Assembly (NCBI GenBank): GCA_017940575.1
Contig: JAGAYJ010000008.1
Coordinates: 350 to 64,349 of the forward strand
Origin: Bacilli bacterium
GTDB taxonomy: Bacteria > Bacillota_I > Bacilli_A > RF39 > UBA660
Length of the DNA: 64,000 nt
Reading direction: 5' to 3'
Positions 6,204-40,802 of the stretch are shown here, piece by piece (the first letter of the stretch is position 1; every line of letters begins with the position of its first letter). The notes under the pieces are model-generated. The model had not been told where the DNA came from. It saw nothing but the letters and a program-made list of their open reading frames with translations, and ran no database searches. The translations under genes and the position numbers were made by a program.

Positions 6204-6647
6204 TTATTTTCTTCTTTTTCTTACTATTGAATCAAGCATTGTAGATCTATAAATTTGATTTTCTAGTGAACCATATGAAATATCTAAATTAAGCTCATAT
6301 CCATTTTTAAATTTTACTCTAGATGATTTATCATTTTTCATATATTTTTCTATTTGATTTAAGAATATCCAACAACATTTTTCATCTCTTGGAGTAAGTG
6401 TTGGAAATGTTATTATATTTTGTGTCTCTTCTACTAAAATAGGAGTTTTATAAGAAATTCCAAGCATACTTATAGTTCCAATATGTCTTCCCTCATAAGA
6501 TGAACCAAAATATCTACAACTTTTATCCACAATATCAAATGAATTTTGATTAATAAAAAAATCATCATCCTCTTCTATTATGTGACTAACTCTATCTGTT
6601 ATAGGTATGATAGCCATAGTTTTACTGTTAATTTCATAGTTTTCCAT
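6204..6647 (-). CDS. comK: ComK-family competence transcription factor homologue (short, 147 aa)
   Basis: Collinear with B. subtilis ComK from memory: YEIN..TMAIIP, IVDKSCRYFGSSYEGR, KTPILVE...FPTLTPR, ISYGSLENQIYRS. Lacks the C-terminal ~45 aa of the Bacillus protein. Confidence 0.75.
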   Translation of the reverse strand: MENYEINSKTMAIIPITDRVSHIIEEDDDFFINQNSFDIVDKSCRYFGSSYEGRHIGTISMLGISYKTPILVEETQNIITFPTLTPRDEKCCWIFLNQIEKYMKNDKSSRVKFKNGYELNLDISYGSLENQIYRSTMLDSIVRKRRK

Positions 6648-16428: not shown

Positions 16429-16504
16429 ATTATATTTCCCAAAATTAATTGCATTATTTCCCAAAGTATTGTATTATAATTATAAGAGTAGGAAGAGGGA
16501 TAAT

Positions 16505-18157
16505 ATGGAAGAGGAAAGAAAAGTTGTTACACTAAATATTGATGATATTTTGCCCAATCGTTTTCAACCAAGAATTCAATTTAATGAACAAGCAATAAAT
16601 GAACTTGCTGAATCAATTAAATTACATGGTGTAATACAACCAATTGTTGTAAGAAAAATAAGTGACAAATATGAAATTATAGCTGGTGAGAGAAGATATA
16701 AAGCAAGTATTATGGCAGGTAAAACTACAATTCCTGCAATTGTAACATCATTAGATGACAGAAATAGTGCTGAAGTTGCTTTAATTGAAAATGTACAAAG
16801 ACAAGATTTAACTCCAATAGAAGAAGCTATATCTTATAAAAAAATACTTGATATGGGATATATTAATCAAGAAGAGTTAGGATCTAAATTAGGTAAAAAA
16901 CAATCTACTATTGCCAATAAACTTAGACTTCTTAATCTATCAGATGAAGTACAAGAAGCTTTAATGGAAAATAAAATATCAGAAAGACATGCAAGATCGT
17001 TATTAAAATTAAACGAAAATGATCAATTATTAATGTTAAATAGAATTATAAGTGAAAGATTAACTGTTAGAAAAACAGATGAAGAAATAGCAAAATTACT
17101 AGAAAACAACGGTGGTAGTCAAAAAGAAATAAATGATGAAAAGGGAGAACAAAAAATGAACAATGATATCTTAAGAGATTTTAACATACCTACAGAACCT
17201 ATTATTAACGATACTGTAGAAAATAAAACAGAACCAATGGTTGAACAACCAATACAACCTATTATTGATGATAACAAAGAAGAAATTAATCCAGTTACTA
17301 ATGTTGAAAAAGAAGAAACAATTAATCCTGGATTTATGGATATTGATAAAATTGAACAAATGGCTGAAGATATTAATAAACCTGAAGTTAAAATGCCTAC
17401 AGAAGATTTATTAAAACCAGCAGAACCAGTAGCACCACAACCAAGTTATGATGAAGTAGCTCAACCAACACATGAAGAACCTATACAACAAAGTATGCCT
17501 CAAGGTGGTAAATTCTTTAATATGTTTAATTTTAGTGAACCAGAAAAAGATGAATCATTTATAGAAGATATTGAAGAAGGTCAAGTTAATATGGATTTTG
17601 GTGATAATTTAAATAATCCAAGTCCTTTTAATCCAATAATTGAACCTGTTCAACCAGAACCAATTGTTGAAGATATTAAAGAAGAAAAATCTACAGAACC
17701 TGTAAATGATCCATTTTCATTTGGTGAATCTGTTTCATTTGATAATGAAATTAAACCTGTAGAACCAATATCATATGAGGAAAAAGAAGAAGAATTAGTA
17801 AATCCAACTCCAGCACCTACTGATGTAAACCCATTTAATGAGACTGTTCAACCTTTCTCACTTACTGACGATGGTTTTAGTACAACTAATACTCAACCTC
17901 AAACTAGTTATGAACAACCTGCATTTGAACGTCCATATATGATGAATAGTGATGTTAACTTTGATGAAGAAGGAGAAATAGAAGTAAAACTTCCAAATTA
18001 TAATGAACCAGAAATTAAAGTTGATATGAAAACAGTTATTAATACTATTAGAGAATGTGCAGCTCAAATTGAAAAATATGGTTATAAAGTAGATACTGAT
18101 GAAATTGATTTAGCTGATACATATGAAGTAACATTTAGAATTAATAAAAATGATTAA
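16505..18157 (+). CDS. noc: ParB-family protein, Noc-like, with a ~300-aa acidic low-complexity insertion
   Basis: ORF track 16469..18157. The ATG at 16505 follows SD GGAAGAGGGA. Motifs ILPNRFQPR, IIAGERRYKAS (CTP-binding GERR), QSTIANKLRLLNL and ISERHARSLL match Noc better than Spo0J. C-terminus INTIRE...YEVTFRINK resembles the Noc C-terminal domain. Confidence 0.8.
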   Translation: MEEERKVVTLNIDDILPNRFQPRIQFNEQAINELAESIKLHGVIQPIVVRKISDKYEIIAGERRYKASIMAGKTTIPAIVTSLDDRNSAEVALIENVQRQDLTPIEEAISYKKILDMGYINQEELGSKLGKKQSTIANKLRLLNLSDEVQEALMENKISERHARSLLKLNENDQLLMLNRIISERLTVRKTDEEIAKLLENNGGSQKEINDEKGEQKMNNDILRDFNIPTEPIINDTVENKTEPMVEQPIQPIIDDNKEEINPVTNVEKEETINPGFMDIDKIEQMAEDINKPEVKMPTEDLLKPAEPVAPQPSYDEVAQPTHEEPIQQSMPQGGKFFNMFNFSEPEKDESFIEDIEEGQVNMDFGDNLNNPSPFNPIIEPVQPEPIVEDIKEEKSTEPVNDPFSFGESVSFDNEIKPVEPISYEEKEEELVNPTPAPTDVNPFNETVQPFSLTDDGFSTTNTQPQTSYEQPAFERPYMMNSDVNFDEEGEIEVKLPNYNEPEIKVDMKTVINTIRECAAQIEKYGYKVDTDEIDLADTYEVTFRINKND

Positions 18158-24290: not shown

Positions 24291-24593
24291 TTAAAATAAT
24301 TCACTATGACTGCCAATTCCAACTAAAAGTAAAACAATCTTTTGATTTTGATATTGATAAATTAGTAACCAATCAGGTTCTATATGACATTCATAACAAT
24401 CTTTATAATATTTATCATTTATTAATTGGTGATTTTTATATTTCTCTTCTAATTCTTCACCATTTGCAAGTTTCTCTAATACATAAATAAATTTTTTAAT
24501 ATTTTTACCTTGTTTAATTATTTTTTTATATTGTTTTTTGAAGCTTGAAGTCATGTCTACAGCATACTTCGTCTTTAAATCTAATTTATTCAT
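24291..24593 (-). CDS. yafQ: type II toxin, YafQ/RelE-family mRNA interferase
   Basis: 100 aa. Motifs FKKQYKK, ...CHIEPDWLLIY... and GSHSELF at the C-terminus. Overlaps the antitoxin by 8 nt. Confidence 0.85.
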   Translation of the reverse strand: MNKLDLKTKYAVDMTSSFKKQYKKIIKQGKNIKKFIYVLEKLANGEELEEKYKNHQLINDKYYKDCYECHIEPDWLLIYQYQNQKIVLLLVGIGSHSELF

Positions 24594-24870
24594 TTAAAGC
24601 ATCAATTACTTCGTTAATTGTATTATATCCTGTTCTTTCAGGATTATTTCTTATTGACTCTGCTTCTTTTAATGCTTTTTTTAACTCTTTACTTGGTTTA
24701 GGTGCAACTACACTAGGTGTGAAAATTAATTTTTGTTCTTGAACACTTTGCTTTAAAAACATATTTAAAGCAACACTTGTATTCATACCAAGTGCTTTAA
24801 ATAATTTATCTGCTTCTTTTTTTAAGTTTTTATCAACTCTAAAGCTCATATTAATTGCTTCACTAGCCAT
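24586..24870 (-). CDS. dinJ: type II antitoxin, RelB/DinJ family
   Basis: 94 aa. N-terminal ribbon-helix-helix INMSFRVDKNLKKEADKLFKALGMNTSVALNMFLKQ. Confidence 0.85.
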   Translation of the reverse strand: MASEAINMSFRVDKNLKKEADKLFKALGMNTSVALNMFLKQSVQEQKLIFTPSVVAPKPSKELKKALKEAESIRNNPERTGYNTINEVIDALNE

Positions 24871-29490: not shown

Positions 29491-29718
29491 TTAAAGTTGA
29501 ACTTTAACCTTTTTATATGCTTTTTTATTATTTGTTAATCCCAATATATAATCGGTACTTGTATTGTAGAATAGAGCAAATTTAATCAAAAGATCAATAG
29601 GTATATTAATTTTACCTAATTCATATTTACTGTAATTTGTTTGAGTTAAATGAAATATTCGCGCTATGTCTTTTTGAAGTAAATCTTTATCTTCTCTTAA
29701 ATCCTTTAGTCTATTCAT
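29491..29718 (-). CDS. XRE-family helix-turn-helix transcriptional regulator
   Basis: 75 aa. Motif LRED.DLLQKDIARIFHLTQTNYSKYELGK. Divergent from the giant pilin gene. Confidence 0.85.
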   Translation of the reverse strand: MNRLKDLREDKDLLQKDIARIFHLTQTNYSKYELGKINIPIDLLIKFALFYNTSTDYILGLTNNKKAYKKVKVQL

Positions 29719-29912
29719 AAAATTTCACCATATTCATTATATTAAAGTTATTTTATGACTATTGACAAATAGTTATATTTTGACTACGTTTTAAATACTA
29801 TGCAAAAAATTATAAAAGTGATTTTTAATTTTTATCATAATAAATTTTCATTTATTTACATTAAAGTATAAATATTATATAATAAAAATAGTTATAATAA
29901 GAGGGTGATAAT

Positions 29913-32900
29913 ATGAAGAAGGGATTTACACTAGTAGAGTTACTTGGGACAATTGTACTTATATCTATTTTAGCAGTTATTACTATACCAGTTGTTACTA
30001 AAATTGTAGATTATGTTAGAAAAGAAGCAGTTAAAAATAGTGTATATAGCTTATTTAAATCAGCTTATATTTATTATGCAGAAAATGAAATTGAAAATAA
30101 AAACGATAAAATAATATTTACGTGTGACGGAAATAAATGTATGACAGCTAAAGGAGGAAGATTATCTTTTAAAGGGTCTGCTCCAACAGGTGGTCAAATT
30201 ATTACAGATGTAGATGGTAAAGCAGAAGCATATTATTTAAGAATTGGTGAATGGTGTATACTTGGTACAAAAAGTTATTTGGATATTAATAAGGATTGTA
30301 CTAAGTTAGATGCAACAAGTGCAGAAGTTACTTTAAAACAGGTTGCTGTTACATCTAAAAGCATAACTGTACAAGTAAATGCAACAGATAATGAATCAAG
30401 TATTAAAAAAATCATTTATGACTTTGATGGAAAAACTTATGAAGAAGACTATAATAATGGAGTAGTTAATACAACAAGATCATTTTCCAATTTAAAAGCA
30501 GGTCAGGAATATAATATTAAAGTTAAAGTAATAAATGGAAATGATTTAGAGCAAAATGAGCAAATAAATATTTCTACATTAGATTTAGGTACTTTAATTG
30601 TTAAGTTTAATAATACTCCTGCTACTAGTCAAAATGGTTATTTAAAAAGTCAAACAGCTTATTTAGATTATAGTTCTAATGATGCAGAAGGATATTATAT
30701 AAAGAGCTTAAGAGATGCAAAAAGTGATATAAATAGTAAAAAAGTATGTACAGGAGATACAGTACCTGATGAATGCACAAATAGTGAAACTTTAAATATT
30801 GAAGCAAATAAATGGTATTATTTTGAAGACTCTCCAAATTTAACTTATAATGAGACAAATAGTACTGATGCAGTATTATATGCAAGAGTTACAAATGGTA
30901 TATCAATTACATCTAATTCTTCTGGAACAATATCTAAGATAGATCAAGATAAACCAATATTAGAACTTGATACTTCTACTGCAACAAGTAAGAATATAAT
31001 AATTCCATTTACAACAACAGATGAACATTCGGGATTAAATACACAAACTTGTAAATATTCAACTACAGATGGTTCATATACATCATCAGCAACAGTTGAA
31101 GATAGTACATGTTTAATAAATAACGTTAATCATAATACAACATATTATTATCAAATATGTTCAACAGATTTAGTTGGAAATAAAAAATGTGAAACTGGAT
31201 CTAACAAAACATTAAAATTATCTGTTACACTTAAATCAACAAATACACCAAGTAATGCTCAAAATGAATATTTAAAAACACAAGTATGGAATTTAGATAC
31301 AACAGGTAGTCCTACTGGATATTATATTAAATCAACAAGAGCAGCAACAAGTAGCGTTAATTTAACAAAGAGTTGTGGATCTGATACTGATCCTACAACA
31401 TGTACTGATATAACATCTACAAAGAATATGGATGCAAATATATGGTATTATACAGAATCAAAACCATCTATTACATATGATAAAACGGCAACGCAAACAG
31501 ATACACTTTTAGCAAGAATAACAGATGGTAAGAATACTACTGTTAATGCATCAGCTACTGTATCTAAGATAGATATTACAAGTCCAACCGTAACATTGGG
31601 TACTGCAACAGTTACAAGTAATAGTGTAAGTATTCCAATAACTAGTAGTGATGCCCATTCAGGACTAAATACAGTAACATGTAAGTATTCAACTACATCT
31701 GGAAGTTATACAGAAGATGCAAGTAGTGCAACAACAAGTAATTGTTTAATCAGTAATGCTGGTAGTAATAGTACATACTATTATCAAGTATGTATAAATG
31801 ATTTAGTAGGTAATGAATCAACATGTAAAACAGGAAGTGCAAAAACAACACAACTTTCAGTAACACTTAAATCAACGAATACACCTACTACTGCTGTAAA
31901 TGGCTATTTAACAAAACAAGTATGGAATTTAACAACTACAGGAAATCCAACTGGATATTGGATTAAGAGTACAAGAGCAGCAACAAGTAGTGTTAATTTA
32001 ACTCAAAGTTGTGGAACAGATGATAGTCCAGGTACTTGTACAACCATAACAGCAACAAAGAGTATGACTGCAAATACATGGTACTATACAACTTCAAAGC
32101 CAAGTATTACATACAGTTCAACTTCTACAACAACAGCAACATTATATGCAAAAATAACAGATGGATATAATACAACATTATATAACAGTGCAACAGTAAG
32201 TAAAATAGAAAATTGTTCATATAGTGCTAATAAACAATGGAGTTATGGGTATAAAGGTAATTATCAAACATTTACAACACCTTGTACAGGTAATTATAAA
32301 ATTGAATTATGGGGTGCACAAGGTGGAAATACAACAGCAACAGGTGGAAAAGGTGCATATACTTCTGGAACTATTACATTAACGCATTCACAAAAATTGT
32401 ATGTATATGTTGGAGGTGCAGGTTCTTCAACAGAAGCAGGTGTTCAGCAAACAATTTCTGGTGGTTATAATGGCGGAGGTTCAACTGGAGGACAAGATTG
32501 TTGTAATCGAAAATTTGGTTCAGGTGGAGGAGCAACGGATATTAGAATAACTTCTGGTACTTGGAACAATGCAACAAGCTTAGCGTCAAGAATTATGGTT
32601 GCTGCTGGAGGTGGCGGATCTTATTCTGGCACTAATGATGTAGAAGCTGCAAACAATGGTGGTGCTGGTGGTACACTTATTGGAAAAAATGGTACGCAAA
32701 GTGGAGGTACAGAACATACTTATTGCTACGGATTAGGTGGAACACAACTTGCTGGAGGATTAGTAACTACAGATTGTTATTATAAGGCAAGTTTTACCAG
32801 TGTTAAATTAAGTTCATTTGGTAAAGGCGGTGGTGATACAGGCGCTAGAACAGGTGGCGGAGGAGGATATTATGGAGGATCTTCATCTGGTCATATAGCA

Positions 32901-33176
32901 AGTGCTGGAGGAGGCTCATCATATATATCAGGTCATAAAGGTTCAATAGCTATAACATCCGCTTCAAATTTATCACCAAGAAAGAATTCTAGCAATGCTA
33001 CTTGTGCATCTGGAACTACGGATATAACTTGTAGTTATCACTATTCAAATAATATTTTTAAATCAACATCTATGATAGATGGAAATAGTTCAATGCCAAA
33101 TAAATCGGGTAGTGGTAATACTACTGGTAATACTGGTAATGGTTATGCTAAAATTACATATTTAGGATTTAATTAA
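29913..33176 (+). CDS. giant modular type IV pilin-like protein: prepilin N-terminus, Ig-like module, 2.5 tandem ~210-aa repeats, C-terminal ALK/LTK-like glycine-rich domain
   Basis: 1087 aa. MKKG|FTLVELLGTIVLISILAVITIPVV is a class III signal peptide (G-1, F+1, E+5). The C-terminal ~310 aa carry YKIELWGAQGG, GGKGAYTSG, LYVYVGGAG, GSGGGATDIRI, IMVAAGGGGSYSG, GGGGGYYGG and AGGGSSYISG, collinear with the ALK glycine-rich region as I recall it. Confidence 0.85.
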   Translation: MKKGFTLVELLGTIVLISILAVITIPVVTKIVDYVRKEAVKNSVYSLFKSAYIYYAENEIENKNDKIIFTCDGNKCMTAKGGRLSFKGSAPTGGQIITDVDGKAEAYYLRIGEWCILGTKSYLDINKDCTKLDATSAEVTLKQVAVTSKSITVQVNATDNESSIKKIIYDFDGKTYEEDYNNGVVNTTRSFSNLKAGQEYNIKVKVINGNDLEQNEQINISTLDLGTLIVKFNNTPATSQNGYLKSQTAYLDYSSNDAEGYYIKSLRDAKSDINSKKVCTGDTVPDECTNSETLNIEANKWYYFEDSPNLTYNETNSTDAVLYARVTNGISITSNSSGTISKIDQDKPILELDTSTATSKNIIIPFTTTDEHSGLNTQTCKYSTTDGSYTSSATVEDSTCLINNVNHNTTYYYQICSTDLVGNKKCETGSNKTLKLSVTLKSTNTPSNAQNEYLKTQVWNLDTTGSPTGYYIKSTRAATSSVNLTKSCGSDTDPTTCTDITSTKNMDANIWYYTESKPSITYDKTATQTDTLLARITDGKNTTVNASATVSKIDITSPTVTLGTATVTSNSVSIPITSSDAHSGLNTVTCKYSTTSGSYTEDASSATTSNCLISNAGSNSTYYYQVCINDLVGNESTCKTGSAKTTQLSVTLKSTNTPTTAVNGYLTKQVWNLTTTGNPTGYWIKSTRAATSSVNLTQSCGTDDSPGTCTTITATKSMTANTWYYTTSKPSITYSSTSTTTATLYAKITDGYNTTLYNSATVSKIENCSYSANKQWSYGYKGNYQTFTTPCTGNYKIELWGAQGGNTTATGGKGAYTSGTITLTHSQKLYVYVGGAGSSTEAGVQQTISGGYNGGGSTGGQDCCNRKFGSGGGATDIRITSGTWNNATSLASRIMVAAGGGGSYSGTNDVEAANNGGAGGTLIGKNGTQSGGTEHTYCYGLGGTQLAGGLVTTDCYYKASFTSVKLSSFGKGGGDTGARTGGGGGYYGGSSSGHIASAGGGSSYISGHKGSIAITSASNLSPRKNSSNATCASGTTDITCSYHYSNNIFKSTSMIDGNSSMPNKSGSGNTTGNTGNGYAKITYLGFN
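30585..32210 (+). repeat. tandem intragenic repeats in the pilin gene (units about 30585-31211, 31212-31847, partial 31848-32210)
   Basis: Protein units aa 225-433, 434-645 and 646-766 align throughout (e.g. LSVTLKSTNTP, IKSTRAATSSVNLT.SCG, WYYT.SKPSITY, SKID, SGLNT.TCKYSTT, YYYQ.C). Units 2 and 3 are the most similar. Confidence 0.85.
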
Positions 33177-33186
33177 AACACATATT

Positions 33187-33220
33187 AAAAAATGTATCAT
33201 ATTATTGATACATTTTTTTG
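33187..33220 (+). terminator. intrinsic terminator of the pilin gene
   Basis: AATGTATCA-TATTAT-TGATACATT followed by TTTTT, flanked upstream by an A-run. Confidence 0.75.
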
Positions 33221-36633: not shown

Positions 36634-36657
36634 CAAAAAAGCACATTTTAGTGCTTT
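36634..36657 (-). terminator. terminator of the minus-strand fem/flippase operon
   Basis: AAAGCAC-N6-GTGCTTT. On the minus strand it is followed by TTTTTT. Overlaps the fem stop codon. Confidence 0.6.
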
Positions 36658-37910
36658 ATTTTTCTATAAATAGGTATTAATCTCTTGTATACAAAATACA
36701 TAAATTTATTAGTAATTAAATCAAATTCACCAATAAATTCAGTATATTCGCCACCTAACCTTTTTTTGAAATTGTGAATGCCGAATGTAGGGTTTGTCTT
36801 ATCTGGATTAGCTTCACCACTACATCCAAAGAAATCAATTAATTTATATCCTTCTTTATGAGCATCTTCAATTATTTTTAAATATAAAAGATAATTAGAA
36901 TTTAACTCTCTAAGTAAAGTAGAATTCCCACCATGTATAGTCCATACCTTATCTTTATATTTTGCTGTCATAATAGAGGATAAAATAATCTCATTTTTAT
37001 CTATTTTTTTAATATCTTCTAATTCTTTTTTAGCTTTATCTAATTGATTAGTTAAATCTTTAAGTAAATTATCTCTTTTCTTTTGATTTTGAAGATTTTT
37101 AGTATCTTCAATATTCTTCTCAATAAAACTTACTTTATCGCTATAAGATTTAACTAAATCAGATATTTTAACACTTACAACATATAAATCAGACATATTA
37201 TGTTTATTTAATATTTCATAATAGTTTTTAAAGTATTCTATAGGAAGAACTTTTTTCATAGACTCTCTATCAGCTGTTTCTAACATTGTTTGATAAAATT
37301 TATCAATATCCGAAATATCACCTTTATACATATTTAAATTATATTGATTGCCTTTATTTAATATTTTTCTAGTTGTTGGATGCATTCCATTATAGATTTC
37401 TTCCCATGGTCTATCTAAATTAAGCCTAAATGTATATCTAGGTTGTTCCCCATGATTTCCTACAAAACTCTTAAAAAATCCCATATGTTTATAGCCAATT
37501 TTACCTAAAAAATTAAGTAATTCAAAATTATTATTATCTCCAACTACATTCCCATCTAAATCTAAGTCATGAAGTTTTAAATCAGGATCAATTTTAACAA
37601 ATATTCCTTTATTTTTCTTAGCATAACTGTATATATATTTTGTAAAAGTTTTAATTAATTCATAATTCTTATAATCAATTACATATCCTCTTGGAACATA
37701 ATAGTAACAGTATTTACCAAGTAGTTTTTTTTGAAGCATCAATGCGCTCGCAACAATTTTATTATTCTCTTTTAAAACAACATAATGTGGTATAAAGTTT
37801 TTATAACGCATTACATCTGCCCAATATCTACTTTGCATGAAATGAGCATTTGAATAATTAGATACATATTCTTCATATTCATCTAAGTTGTTTATCTCTT
37901 CAAATATCAT
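36648..37910 (-). CDS. FemAB-family peptidoglycan interpeptide-bridge aminoacyltransferase (paralogue 1)
   Basis: 420 aa. Motifs FMQSRYWA, YYYVPRGYVIDY, a coiled-coil insertion (aa ~245-305), and GGNS...FGIHNFKKRLGG. Confidence 0.88.
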   Translation of the reverse strand: MIFEEINNLDEYEEYVSNYSNAHFMQSRYWADVMRYKNFIPHYVVLKENNKIVASALMLQKKLLGKYCYYYVPRGYVIDYKNYELIKTFTKYIYSYAKKNKGIFVKIDPDLKLHDLDLDGNVVGDNNNFELLNFLGKIGYKHMGFFKSFVGNHGEQPRYTFRLNLDRPWEEIYNGMHPTTRKILNKGNQYNLNMYKGDISDIDKFYQTMLETADRESMKKVLPIEYFKNYYEILNKHNMSDLYVVSVKISDLVKSYSDKVSFIEKNIEDTKNLQNQKKRDNLLKDLTNQLDKAKKELEDIKKIDKNEIILSSIMTAKYKDKVWTIHGGNSTLLRELNSNYLLYLKIIEDAHKEGYKLIDFFGCSGEANPDKTNPTFGIHNFKKRLGGEYTEFIGEFDLITNKFMYFVYKRLIPIYRKIKH

Positions 37911-39469
37911 ATTTTCATCCCTTTTCTAAATAGTTTTTTAAAAATATTTGATATCTTTTCATAGAAATACTTAAATTCTTCAGTTCTTCTAAATAATAGT
38001 ATAATTATTAAGTTATATAAAATAAATGTAATGATTGCTGTAAATAACCAAATTAGTATGTGAGTAGTATTAAAGAATGTTGATAAATAATATAAAATAC
38101 CACATGAACTTAAAAATATTATTAAATAATAAATATATCTTCTATAATACTCAAATACATTTGCTTTAAATCCATACTTATAAATAACAAGTGGATCTAA
38201 CCAAGCAATTGTAAGAAGTCTTGATACTATAGTACCAATAAGTACACCAGCAATACCCATTGGCTTAACAAGTATAACAGATACTACAATATTTATAATA
38301 ACCATTACAATTGGTCTAAATTTAGCTTTATAAAATAATCCGTATGCTGATCTAAAAGAATTTGTAACCGCACCCATACCAGTTAAATAAAAGTTAAATG
38401 CTAGTAAAAAAGCTACTGTAGTACTTAATACATAATCATGATTTAGCCATATTTCAATAAATGGGTTAATAAGTATAAATAAACATACACTAAATAATGA
38501 ATAAATATAAAAATTAAAGAATGATAAATTCTCATAAATACTTTTACTTCTTTCATTATTGGTAGCTACTAAATTACCAATTGATGAAGTGATAGAATTA
38601 AAAAGTTGATTTAAAACATTATTAAGTGAATTAGTTATTAAAATATAGTTTGAGTAAATACCAACAGGTATAAGTCCCATAAACTTAGAAATAACTATAT
38701 TATCAGTACCAAGTGTTACAACAGAACCAATTTTATAAATAAGTAAAGCCTTAACATTAGTAATGATTTCATCTTTATCTTCCTTAGATATAACATCTTC
38801 TGTCTTATCTTTAATAAATGGATACATTTTATCTGCTTTAATTGAAATCCATATATTTTGAATTAAGACAAATACTATTGAACAAAATAAATATATAATA
38901 AAGTTTTTAGTTAAAATAAGTAAAATAACACGTGTTATATTAAGAAAAAATGAAGAAATAAATGTAATATTTGATGTAATATATCCCTTTTGATCTGAAT
39001 CAATTAAGAATTTCTTATATACAAAAAAGTAAGTCAAAGCAGAATGTATTACAAATAAGTCATATATAAAATAAATTCCTTTTATATTAGGCATATCTTT
39101 AATAATATGGCTTAAAAAAGGCGTTAAAGATAAACCAATTACTAAAACAACACATCCAATTATATTATATACATTTCTATAAAATTTCATTAAAACTCTT
39201 ATTTTTTTAGTATCCTTATCAGCAAGTGGTTTATATAAACTATAAGGTATTGCAACTCCTATTCCTAAATCGGCTAGCGATAATAGAGTAATAATATTAG
39301 AAAAAAGTCCATTAATTCCTAAATACTCTTTTCCTAAGATAAATATAAAAATTGTTTTAACAACAAAATCCATAATAATTGTTAAAACTTGCGTAATAAT
39401 AGAAATAGAAGAATTTCTAATTGAGTTTTTAGTTCTTGAATCTGTATTCATAAGCCACTCCTTATCCAA
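37907..39469 (-). CDS. MOP-superfamily (Wzx/polysaccharide-biosynthesis type) flippase
   Basis: 520 aa, about 14 TM. N-terminus SIRNSSISIITQVLTIIMDFVVKTIFIFILGKEYLGINGLFSNI is typical of oligosaccharide flippases. Confidence 0.82.
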   Translation of the reverse strand: MDKEWLMNTDSRTKNSIRNSSISIITQVLTIIMDFVVKTIFIFILGKEYLGINGLFSNIITLLSLADLGIGVAIPYSLYKPLADKDTKKIRVLMKFYRNVYNIIGCVVLVIGLSLTPFLSHIIKDMPNIKGIYFIYDLFVIHSALTYFFVYKKFLIDSDQKGYITSNITFISSFFLNITRVILLILTKNFIIYLFCSIVFVLIQNIWISIKADKMYPFIKDKTEDVISKEDKDEIITNVKALLIYKIGSVVTLGTDNIVISKFMGLIPVGIYSNYILITNSLNNVLNQLFNSITSSIGNLVATNNERSKSIYENLSFFNFYIYSLFSVCLFILINPFIEIWLNHDYVLSTTVAFLLAFNFYLTGMGAVTNSFRSAYGLFYKAKFRPIVMVIINIVVSVILVKPMGIAGVLIGTIVSRLLTIAWLDPLVIYKYGFKANVFEYYRRYIYYLIIFLSSCGILYYLSTFFNTTHILIWLFTAIITFILYNLIIILLFRRTEEFKYFYEKISNIFKKLFRKGMKI

Positions 39470-39539
39470 TATACATTATATCATATTTAATGACATTATA
39501 AAAAAAATATAGTATAATATTTAAAGTGAGAGTGATAAT

Positions 39540-40802
39540 ATGTTAGTAGAATTAACTAGTGATGAATTTAATGAATATAGTAAACATCATAAAAGTAGTA
39601 TCTTTTTTGAGAGCTCTTATTGGGGTGAACTAAAAGCAAGTACTGGTTGGATTTCATATTATGTTGGATATAAAGAGAATAGTATTAAATGTGCCACTCT
39701 TCTACTTGCAAAAAAAATACCAGTTATAAATAAATATATATTTTATTCACCAAGAGGCTTTTTAATAGACTATCAAAATAAAGAATTAGTTAAAAAATTT
39801 ACAGAAGAAATATTTAAATTTGTAAAAAATAAAAAAGGAATATTCTTTAAAATAAATCCAATGTTAATATATCAAGAGAGAGATATAAATGGTGATATAG
39901 TTGAAGGTGGAATTAATAATAAGGATGTAGTTGATTATTTAAAAGAAATAGGTTATCAACATGTTGGCTTAACTAATGACTATGGAAAAGATATTGAACC
40001 TCGTTGGATATCAGTACTTGACTTAAAAGATAAAACATATGATGATATATATAATGGTTATAACAAACTTAAAAAACGTCATATGAAAAGTATATCTAAA
40101 CTTAATTTTAAACTAGTTGAGATAGATAAATCCAGAATGGATGAATATAAAAAAATGATGTCTAAAACATCCGTAAGAAGAGGATTCATTGATAGACCAC
40201 TATCATATTATAATAAAATGTATGATGTATTTAAACCAAACGATATTATAAAAGTTATGTTTGTAGAAATAAACTTCCAAGAAAAATTAGAACAAGATAT
40301 AGCAAGATTAAATGAATTAAATAGTAAAATTGAATCAGAAAAAAATAAAAATAAAGTAAATGAAAATTTAATTAATGAACTTGTAAGACAAACAGAATCA
40401 ATTAATAAAACAATTAAAGAAGATAAAGATTACATTGAAGAATATGGTTCAAAAGATATACCTATATCATCCGGATTATTTATGTGTTTTGGACCTGAAG
40501 TTGTATATTTATTTGGTGCGAATTATGAAGAGTTCATGAATTTAAATGGTGCAACTTACCTAATGGATCAAATGATTAAATATGCAATAGATAATAAGTT
40601 TGAAAGATATAACTTCTATGGTATTACAGGACACTTTGAGTCTAGTCATCCAATGTATGGATTATTTGATTTTAAAAGAGGCTTTGGAGCAAATGTAGAA
40701 GAACTTATAGGTGAATTTACATATGTAACAAATAAGTTTTATTATTATATATATAAAATAATGAAAAAATGTTATAGTTTAATGAAGAAGGTGAAAAGAT
40801 GA
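39540..40802 (+). CDS. FemAB-family peptidoglycan interpeptide-bridge aminoacyltransferase (paralogue 2)
   Basis: 420 aa. Motifs FFESSYWG, FYSPRGFLIDY, a coiled-coil insertion, and FDFKRGFGA. Roughly one-third identical to paralogue 1 by eye. Confidence 0.88.
   Translation: MLVELTSDEFNEYSKHHKSSIFFESSYWGELKASTGWISYYVGYKENSIKCATLLLAKKIPVINKYIFYSPRGFLIDYQNKELVKKFTEEIFKFVKNKKGIFFKINPMLIYQERDINGDIVEGGINNKDVVDYLKEIGYQHVGLTNDYGKDIEPRWISVLDLKDKTYDDIYNGYNKLKKRHMKSISKLNFKLVEIDKSRMDEYKKMMSKTSVRRGFIDRPLSYYNKMYDVFKPNDIIKVMFVEINFQEKLEQDIARLNELNSKIESEKNKNKVNENLINELVRQTESINKTIKEDKDYIEEYGSKDIPISSGLFMCFGPEVVYLFGANYEEFMNLNGATYLMDQMIKYAIDNKFERYNFYGITGHFESSHPMYGLFDFKRGFGANVEELIGEFTYVTNKFYYYIYKIMKKCYSLMKKVKR

Follow-up and report, generated by a model that had tools for sequence, protein, structure and literature searches.

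In a 64,000-nucleotide stretch of contig JAGAYJ010000008.1 from a Bacilli bacterium (assembly GCA_017940575.1, positions 350 to 64,349; hereafter the window), we analysed a gene that probably encodes a multi-modular minor type IV pilin displaying a binding module at the filament tip. The open reading frame (29913..33176, forward strand) has an ATG start and comprises 1087 codons and a stop codon. Its product combines an N-terminal pilin module (aa 1-132), a stalk (aa 133-766) and a C-terminal glycine-rich domain (GRD; aa 771-1087) of the type known from the ALK and LTK receptors. An identical protein is recorded at NCBI as MBP3765829.1, is present on 6-7 contigs and carries the name 'MAG: prepilin-type N-terminal cleavage/methylation domain-containing protein [Bacilli bacterium]', where MAG denotes a metagenome-assembled genome. 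An earlier model-made interpretation of the DNA (hereafter the sequence-only reading) had described the gene as an orphan modular pilin ending in an ALK/LTK-type domain.

The N-terminus of the protein, MKKG|FTLVELLGTIVLISILAVITIPVV, contains a class III (prepilin) signal, MKKG|FTLVE, with a short basic leader ending in Gly, a hydrophobic residue at position +1 and Glu at +5. The leader peptide MKKG (29913..29924) precedes a predicted prepilin-peptidase site after G4. The NCBIfam model TIGR02532 scored this region above its cut-off (21 bits versus 16.3), and the ComGC/GspG/PilA models matched aa 2-57. When the first 136 residues were compared with the PDB sequences, the best match was the Streptococcus sanguinis pilin PilE1 (8pfb_G, E=1.5e-4), and this alignment was in register, with F5 of the precursor opposite mature residue 1. 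The AlphaFold model of aa 1-450, built with 34 sequences, had a mean pLDDT (predicted local distance difference test) of 90.7 and displayed the long N-terminal alpha-1 helix and small beta head that are characteristic of type IV pilins. The alpha-1 segment (29925..30083, including mature F1, E5 and P22; predicted as helix at aa 7-57) aligns with mature residues 1-51 of PilE1 and is followed by a five-stranded sheet reaching to about aa 126 (strands 67-71, 93-98, 104-111, 114-119 and 123-126). This predicted head (30084..30308, pLDDT 80-90) holds four cysteines, at positions 71, 76, 115 and 129. In the alignment of 34 relatives, G-1 (G4), T2 (T6), L3 (L7) and E5 (E9) were invariant, and F1 and P22 (P26 of the precursor) were conserved in at least 90% of the sequences. 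In established pilin biology, E5 and P22 are associated with filament assembly beyond mere membrane anchoring. Both the prepilin signal with its hydrophobic helix and the small Cys-containing head, as proposed in the sequence-only reading, were thus supported by the profiles and the model.

At the opposite end of the protein (32223..33173), the Pfam family PF12810 (ALK_LTK_GRD) was matched over aa 792-1084 with an E-value of 2.8e-48 and a score of 165.5 bits against a cut-off of 24.5, the match spanning model positions 7-243 of 243. All of the ordered glycine motifs listed earlier are present in this region. A profile of 86 homologues of the domain, searched against PDB, detected Caenorhabditis elegans SCD-2 (E=2.8e-12) and human ALK (E=1.6e-9 to 5.5e-9) with collinear glycine motifs, and in this search nothing else was significant apart from pilins. 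ALK was reached through the 86-sequence profile only, since a single-sequence phmmer search of PDB with the GRD gave no match. The AlphaFold model of the GRD (317 aa) had a pLDDT of 96.3 and a predicted TM-score (pTM) of 0.94, and the top 21 PDB matches found with Foldseek were all GRD/TG domains of ALK or LTK (probability 1.00, E=1e-7 to 2e-5). The Gly-rich segments of this model, with pLDDT >90, were assigned neither helical nor strand structure, and the sheet part is built from strands of both domain ends; both features lend indirect support to a hexagonal lattice of polyglycine-II helices on a TNF-like beta-sandwich. Among the homologues, the Gly positions had a mean conservation of 0.78 as against 0.47 for the intervening stretches, which is the pattern that a fixed scaffold carrying variable loops should show.

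A receptor of the ALK family has, C-terminal to its GRD, an EGF-like domain, a transmembrane helix and a kinase, and it binds ALKAL cytokines. According to the Pfam matches, none of these three elements follows the GRD in the bacterial protein, which ends at this domain. Judging from the profile matches, its C-terminus is homologous to the ALK/LTK GRD and the domain alone is shared, the protein itself not being an ALK-family receptor. ALK, LTK and SCD-2 (PDB 7LRZ, 7LS0, 7N00, 7NWZ, 7NX1 and 7LIR), which belong to the same Pfam family and have collinear glycine motifs, were the sole significant PDB fold matches of the bacterial GRD. However, the identity to these proteins is only about 17-20% with a TM-score of about 0.4, and the bacterial GRD differs from that of ALK/LTK in having a conserved C-terminal extension of about 80 aa (SYHYS...GNGYAKIT). 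To our knowledge, ALKAL-type ligands are not expected in bacteria. Polyglycine-II helices have been described in ALK (PMC11364801).

The same domain also occurs in phages. The GRD matched PHROGs 5811, 1589 and 7388, all of them without annotated function, at E=1e-40 to 1e-36, and 71 viral models in BFVD matched it at E<=1e-3, two of these being annotated as 'virion structural protein' and one as 'phage tail collar'. Comparison with models from gut siphoviruses gave TMq values of up to 0.67. In the Clostridioides difficile phage phiCD119, ORF31 (YP_529582.1; 6743-8014 of the retrieved locus, L013) encodes a 423-aa 'hypothetical protein' which matches PF12810 at E=8e-52 with a full GRD; the gene lies directly 3' of two tail-fibre genes and shortly ahead of the holin gene. 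We consider ORF31 a candidate receptor-binding protein, and we infer from its place beside the tail-fibre genes that the prokaryotic GRD may serve in host contact or receptor binding. These phage proteins share with the bacterial one the domain itself and an extracellular, host-contact position, but they have the GRD at the N-terminus, lack a pilin signal and carry no annotated function.

The pilin module and the GRD are separated by a stalk which was all-beta in the AlphaFold model and for which Foldseek found tandem FnIII arrays and the SiiE adhesin. The first domain of the stalk (aa 133-224; 30309..30584), previously proposed to be an Ig-like module, gave a weak Pfam fn3 match at 144-211 and was predicted, with support from Foldseek, to form a beta-sandwich at 138-221. 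The sequence-only reading had further described 2.5 tandem Cys-paired repeats of about 210 aa. Plain self-comparison by blastp gave the diagonal only, and the repeats were found by masking each segment in turn: units 229-440 and 441-652 were 51% identical (E=3.5e-60), and segment 653-766 was 72% identical to 441-554. The repeats are therefore real. However, the second half of each unit was also about 29% identical to aa 131-216, so the stalk is better described as three pairs, each consisting of an fn3-like sandwich and a domain X of about 115 aa, which would give six beta-sandwich domains in total. In the order of the protein, the first sandwich is followed by X domain 1 (aa 229-344; 30597..30944), which is all-beta and has two Cys, the second fn3-like sandwich (aa 345-440; 30945..31232) with four Cys, X domain 2 (aa 441-553; 31233..31571), located inside the repeat unit 441-652, the third fn3-like sandwich (aa 554-652; 31572..31868), which shares the similarity to aa 131-216, and X domain 3 (aa 653-766; 31869..32210), the counterpart of X domain 2 in the 72% match. 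No Pfam family was matched by the X domain.

A search with the full-length protein yielded 42 relatives, and in 38 of them the same class III signal was present. These proteins have the pilin module and the fn3-X stalk in common, with differing numbers of repeats; unlike the GRD studied here, their precomputed Pfam matches include TSP1 repeats, Flg_new, LRR_5, Big and others. As far as these domain matches indicate, different tips have been shuffled on the same stalk across the family. Searching genome contigs with the full protein revealed two distant relatives, in an uncultured Tenericutes MAG and an uncultured Bacilli MAG. One relative of 1394 aa (MBP3766457.1, P0002; L002 10001-14185) shares the pilin module and the fn3-X stalk at 58% identity. 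It gave no match to PF12810, and its last 210 or so residues produced only sub-threshold Ig-like matches. The accession numbers of MBP3766457.1 and MBP3765829.1 are 628 apart, and the two proteins probably originate from the same MAG.

When the GRD alone was used as the query, 3579 proteins were found among 8000 candidates scored, and exhaustive searching with HMMER retrieved 6556 cluster representatives with E<=1e-3, 709 of them with E<=1e-30. The closest relative of the domain (P0043, 74% identity) belongs to a two-module pilin of 442 aa. A canonical class III signal was present in 31 of the 120 closest GRD proteins and a degenerate one in 9 more, about a third being prepilin-like when both are taken together. 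Among 135 further representatives of 50%-identity GRD clusters, the signal was found in 21. Short two-module proteins (P0043, P0045, P0090 and P0162, from metagenomes) resemble the protein analysed here in having a class III signal and one GRD, but they are only 420-460 aa long, lack the stalk and are often encoded in tandem arrays. One tandem array, from a related sample (L009 1-17467; ENA ERZ28653423 scaffold_110), contains at least 10 consecutive same-strand PF12810 genes (420-739 aa), six of which also have a PF07963 match, and another related contig carries two adjacent GRD genes. The exhaustive search also showed that GRD proteins exceeding 7000 aa, with up to 12 copies of the domain, exist; in public metagenomes or genomes, the giant members (P0183-P0186 and others) reach about 7000-7660 aa and contain 10-12 GRD copies.

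The sequence-only reading knew of no pilin carrying this module, and this part of it did not hold. The architecture IPR012902-PF12810 is already present in Dataset S1 of Raynaud et al. 2021, in two proteins and in one more with three PF12810 matches, and a PilY1 with PF12810 is listed in Dataset S2; neither is discussed in the text of that paper (PMC8179133). Nor did the implied uniqueness survive the counts of class III signals and the tandem array given above. The combination of pilin and GRD is thus already known, and this protein is unusual for its long repeated stalk. As the prepilin annotation exists and the domain combination is in a published table, the result for this gene is mostly confirmatory.

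The protein has an N-terminal IPR012902 domain and at least one non-pilus domain, by which Raynaud et al. defined modular pilins, but instead of the short-linker two-module design it has six beta-sandwich domains (aa 133-766) between the modules. The existence of multi-domain modular pilins has been acknowledged (PMC8179133). The nearest studied parallels are PilB (vWA) and PilC (lectin) of S. sanguinis, which likewise occur in a monoderm host and place a non-pilin effector module after a class III signal and a small pilin module (PMC8179133; PMC9934059), the effector modules being thought to be presented at the filament tip (PMC8179133; PMC9934059). In contrast to PilB and PilC, the effector here is an ALK-type GRD and not a vWA or lectin domain, about 640 aa of six beta-sandwich domains replace the short linker, and the gene lies outside any pil cluster. 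CofB, the tip minor pilin of the type IVb pili of enterotoxigenic Escherichia coli (ETEC), also has a pilin module followed by extra beta-rich domains on a linker at the tip (PMC8179133). However, in CofB these are a beta-repeat and one beta-sandwich, the protein is a trimer and its gene belongs to the cof operon (PMC8179133). No sequence relationship between the two proteins was detected.

By analogy with S. sanguinis PilB/PilC and ETEC CofB, we infer how the protein might work. A prepilin peptidase encoded elsewhere in the genome would cut after G4 and F1 would be methylated. The hydrophobic alpha-1N helix with E5 and P22 would then dock the small pilin module into a filament, which could be the Com (competence) pilus or a different type IV pilus. 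The tip would be the sole possible position in such a filament, because about 950 aa of bulky beta domains come after the pilin module. There, the six beta-sandwich domains, arranged as three fn3-like and X pairs, would extend as a stalk over a few tens of nanometres and hold out the C-terminal ALK-type GRD as the effector, which is most probably, by the same analogy, a ligand- or receptor-binding (adhesion) module.

With regard to the filament, the window contains a gene for ComK (PF06338, E=2.7e-44; 6204-6647, reverse strand), located between dnaN and recF in the replication-origin region. Since the competence regulons of Firmicutes usually comprise a Com pilus together with the ComC peptidase, the ComK gene makes it plausible that the source organism has such a regulon and pilus. 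The placement of this gene in the origin region is unusual and provides a hint of natural competence.

Several observations weigh against a pilus-tip adhesin. First, no gene with a Pfam annotation between about 330 and 62,800 of the window, or in about 10 kb past its left edge, belonged to the families T2SSE, T2SSF or Peptidase_A24; the description of the gene as an orphan, with no assembly ATPase, platform protein or prepilin peptidase, therefore holds for the window. Pilus machinery was likewise absent beside the related genes at the four related loci examined. Second, the Pfam model N_methyl (PF07963), expected at the N-terminus in the sequence-only reading together with PF12810 at the C-terminus, scored 21.0 bits against a gathering score of 21.2, that is, 0.2 bits below it, so that of the two expected families PF12810 was obtained and for the N-terminus it was TIGR02532 that passed. 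Third, in about two thirds of the 120 GRD proteins closest to this one the N-terminus is an ordinary signal or membrane anchor, and therefore the GRD needs no pilus. Moreover, the array of at least 10 GRD paralogues looks more like a set of variable surface proteins than like classical minor pilins. Fourth, the TM-scores between the GRD model and the ALK/LTK crystal structures were only 0.34-0.40, with root-mean-square deviations of 9-13 A, and the likeness of the modelled domain to ALK/LTK is one of core topology and not of close superposition. Finally, no function or ligand of any bacterial or phage GRD is described in the searchable literature.

Part of this evidence would also suit a protein that uses the pilin signal for surface display. 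In that case, the class III signal would serve membrane insertion and processing only, the alpha-1N helix would be an anchor in the cytoplasmic membrane that does not polymerise, and the stalk would span the thick Gram-positive wall and leave the GRD exposed. Prepilin-like and ordinary membrane-anchor N-termini are interchangeable among the GRD relatives, pilus machinery never adjoins the genes in the loci seen, large tandem paralogue arrays exist, and the stalk is long relative to the short linkers of PilB/PilC; all this is in agreement with display from the membrane. However, E5 is strictly conserved and P22 is conserved at about 90%, and both residues are tied to filament assembly and not to anchoring alone. 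In addition, stalk-less two-module pilin-GRD proteins are common, and these could not cross the wall unless they were carried by a filament. We therefore regard anchored display as a serious explanation which is nonetheless unlikely, and prefer the view that the protein is a minor pilin located at the tip.

The resemblance to prepilins could also have arisen by chance in an ordinary Sec-exported wall protein anchored by its N-terminus, and the N_methyl score marginally under the gathering threshold could be taken in that sense. The TIGR02532 score above the cut-off, the in-register alignment with PilE1 and the conservation of G-1, E5, F1 and P22 in the 34 relatives all speak against it. Moreover, there is only one such motif in the window, a second prepilin motif being absent from all six frames of the 64 kb. 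Chance similarity is thus very improbable. The matches of the GRD to the three PHROGs, to many viral models and to the tail-module protein of phiCD119 would fit a receptor-binding or tail-fibre-like protein of phage origin, or part of a bacteriocin, in a prophage remnant, but we find this hardly credible given that the neighbours near the replication origin are housekeeping and sporulation genes with no phage genes among them, that the gene has the same GC content at third codon positions (GC3) as these neighbours, and that in the N-terminal 770 aa the PHROGs matched just the pilin signal, and this marginally (E>=5e-4). A prophage origin was rejected on account of the GC3 and the absence of phage genes nearby.

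Modular pilins account for the way in which simple filaments acquire many functions, and the protein analysed here offers a well-defined example with a long stalk and a module whose sole studied relatives are the human ALK and LTK receptors. More interesting than the single gene is the broader point that the ligand-binding domain of ALK has a very large, uncharacterised family of homologues in prokaryotes and viruses. Being compact and confidently modelled, the 317-aa GRD would be a good entry to the structure and ligand of the prokaryotic domain, and such work would bear on the origin of the ALK domain. A much broader idea is that the GRD-tipped pilins of Firmicutes from gut and rumen constitute a large, unstudied class of adhesins at type IV pilus tips, which share the receptor-binding module of phage tail fibres, and that this bacterial and phage module, with its thousands of families, was the evolutionary source of the otherwise isolated ligand-binding domain of metazoan ALK/LTK. 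Taken as a whole this idea is speculative, and we consider it rather doubtful.

The signals flanking the gene are consistent with independent expression. The sequence TTTACA-17-TATAAT (29855..29883, forward strand), located 30 nt 5' of the ATG, resembles a sigma-70 promoter, matches 11 of the 12 consensus positions and was the top scorer in the scan. This assignment is suggestive only, because such sites are not enriched overall in the AT-rich region (32 found versus 27.8 expected). A Shine-Dalgarno sequence, GAGGGTG (29901..29907), can be read directly 5 nt 5' of the ATG, and the gene is followed by an AT-rich intrinsic terminator (33187..33219) with a perfect 13-bp stem, a 6-nt loop and a U run. 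The hairpin has a folding energy of -14.8 kcal/mol (z = -4.8), and an equally good fold was obtained in 0 of 200 shuffles. With its own promoter-like site, Shine-Dalgarno sequence and terminator, the gene therefore looks like a single-gene transcription unit.

The window and an independent ENA scaffold agree with 100% identity over the 23 kb surrounding the gene, and the gene is therefore not an assembly artefact. In dnaA, a 162-bp length difference between the two was due to a local replacement, with 262 nt in the window versus 100 nt in the scaffold, and this probably reflects a gap in the scaffold. The GC3 of the pilin gene is 0.09, equal to that of the adjoining genes, and the gene is therefore not a recent import; recent horizontal transfer was rejected on this ground and for the lack of phage genes nearby. 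The gene is native to a spore-forming, gut-type Firmicute of 25% GC that is known solely from metagenomes.

The window represents the replication-origin region of this organism and includes gyrA, gyrB, recF, comK, dnaN, dnaA, rpmH, rnpA, yidC, mnmE, mnmG, rsmG, parB, uvrB, rplI, dnaB and rlmH. From rlmH onward, the order is the XRE gene, the pilin gene, spoIIR, mntP, murA, femAB, spoIID and mreB, which agrees with the neighbours (rlmH, an XRE regulator and spoIIR) named earlier. The XRE-family helix-turn-helix gene (29491..29718, reverse strand; 75 aa; HTH_3 E=7.6e-11) is divergent from the pilin gene and shares with it a 194-nt intergenic region; it is possibly a local regulator.

At two of the related loci from different genomes (L002 7622-9865 and L004 5042-7341), a gene for an ATPase of the DUF87/HerA type (about 580 aa) and a small open reading frame with no significant Pfam match come after ftsY and ylxM. 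In L002 this pair is followed directly by the giant pilin gene, and in L004 by ffh and a GRD-only gene before the pilin-GRD gene. The location of the HerA-type ATPase near the pilin genes could indicate either linkage or just shared synteny.

Elsewhere in the window, a 520-aa open reading frame with no Pfam match (37907-39469, reverse strand) lies within 36648-40802, flanked by two FemAB-family genes. The ParB homologue (16469-18157, forward strand; 562 aa) matches the ParB domains over its first 210 or so residues and has a C-terminal extension of about 350 aa without a Pfam match. In addition, a pair consisting of a YafQ/ParE-type toxin and a RelB-type antitoxin is encoded between whiA and rplI (24291-24870, reverse strand).

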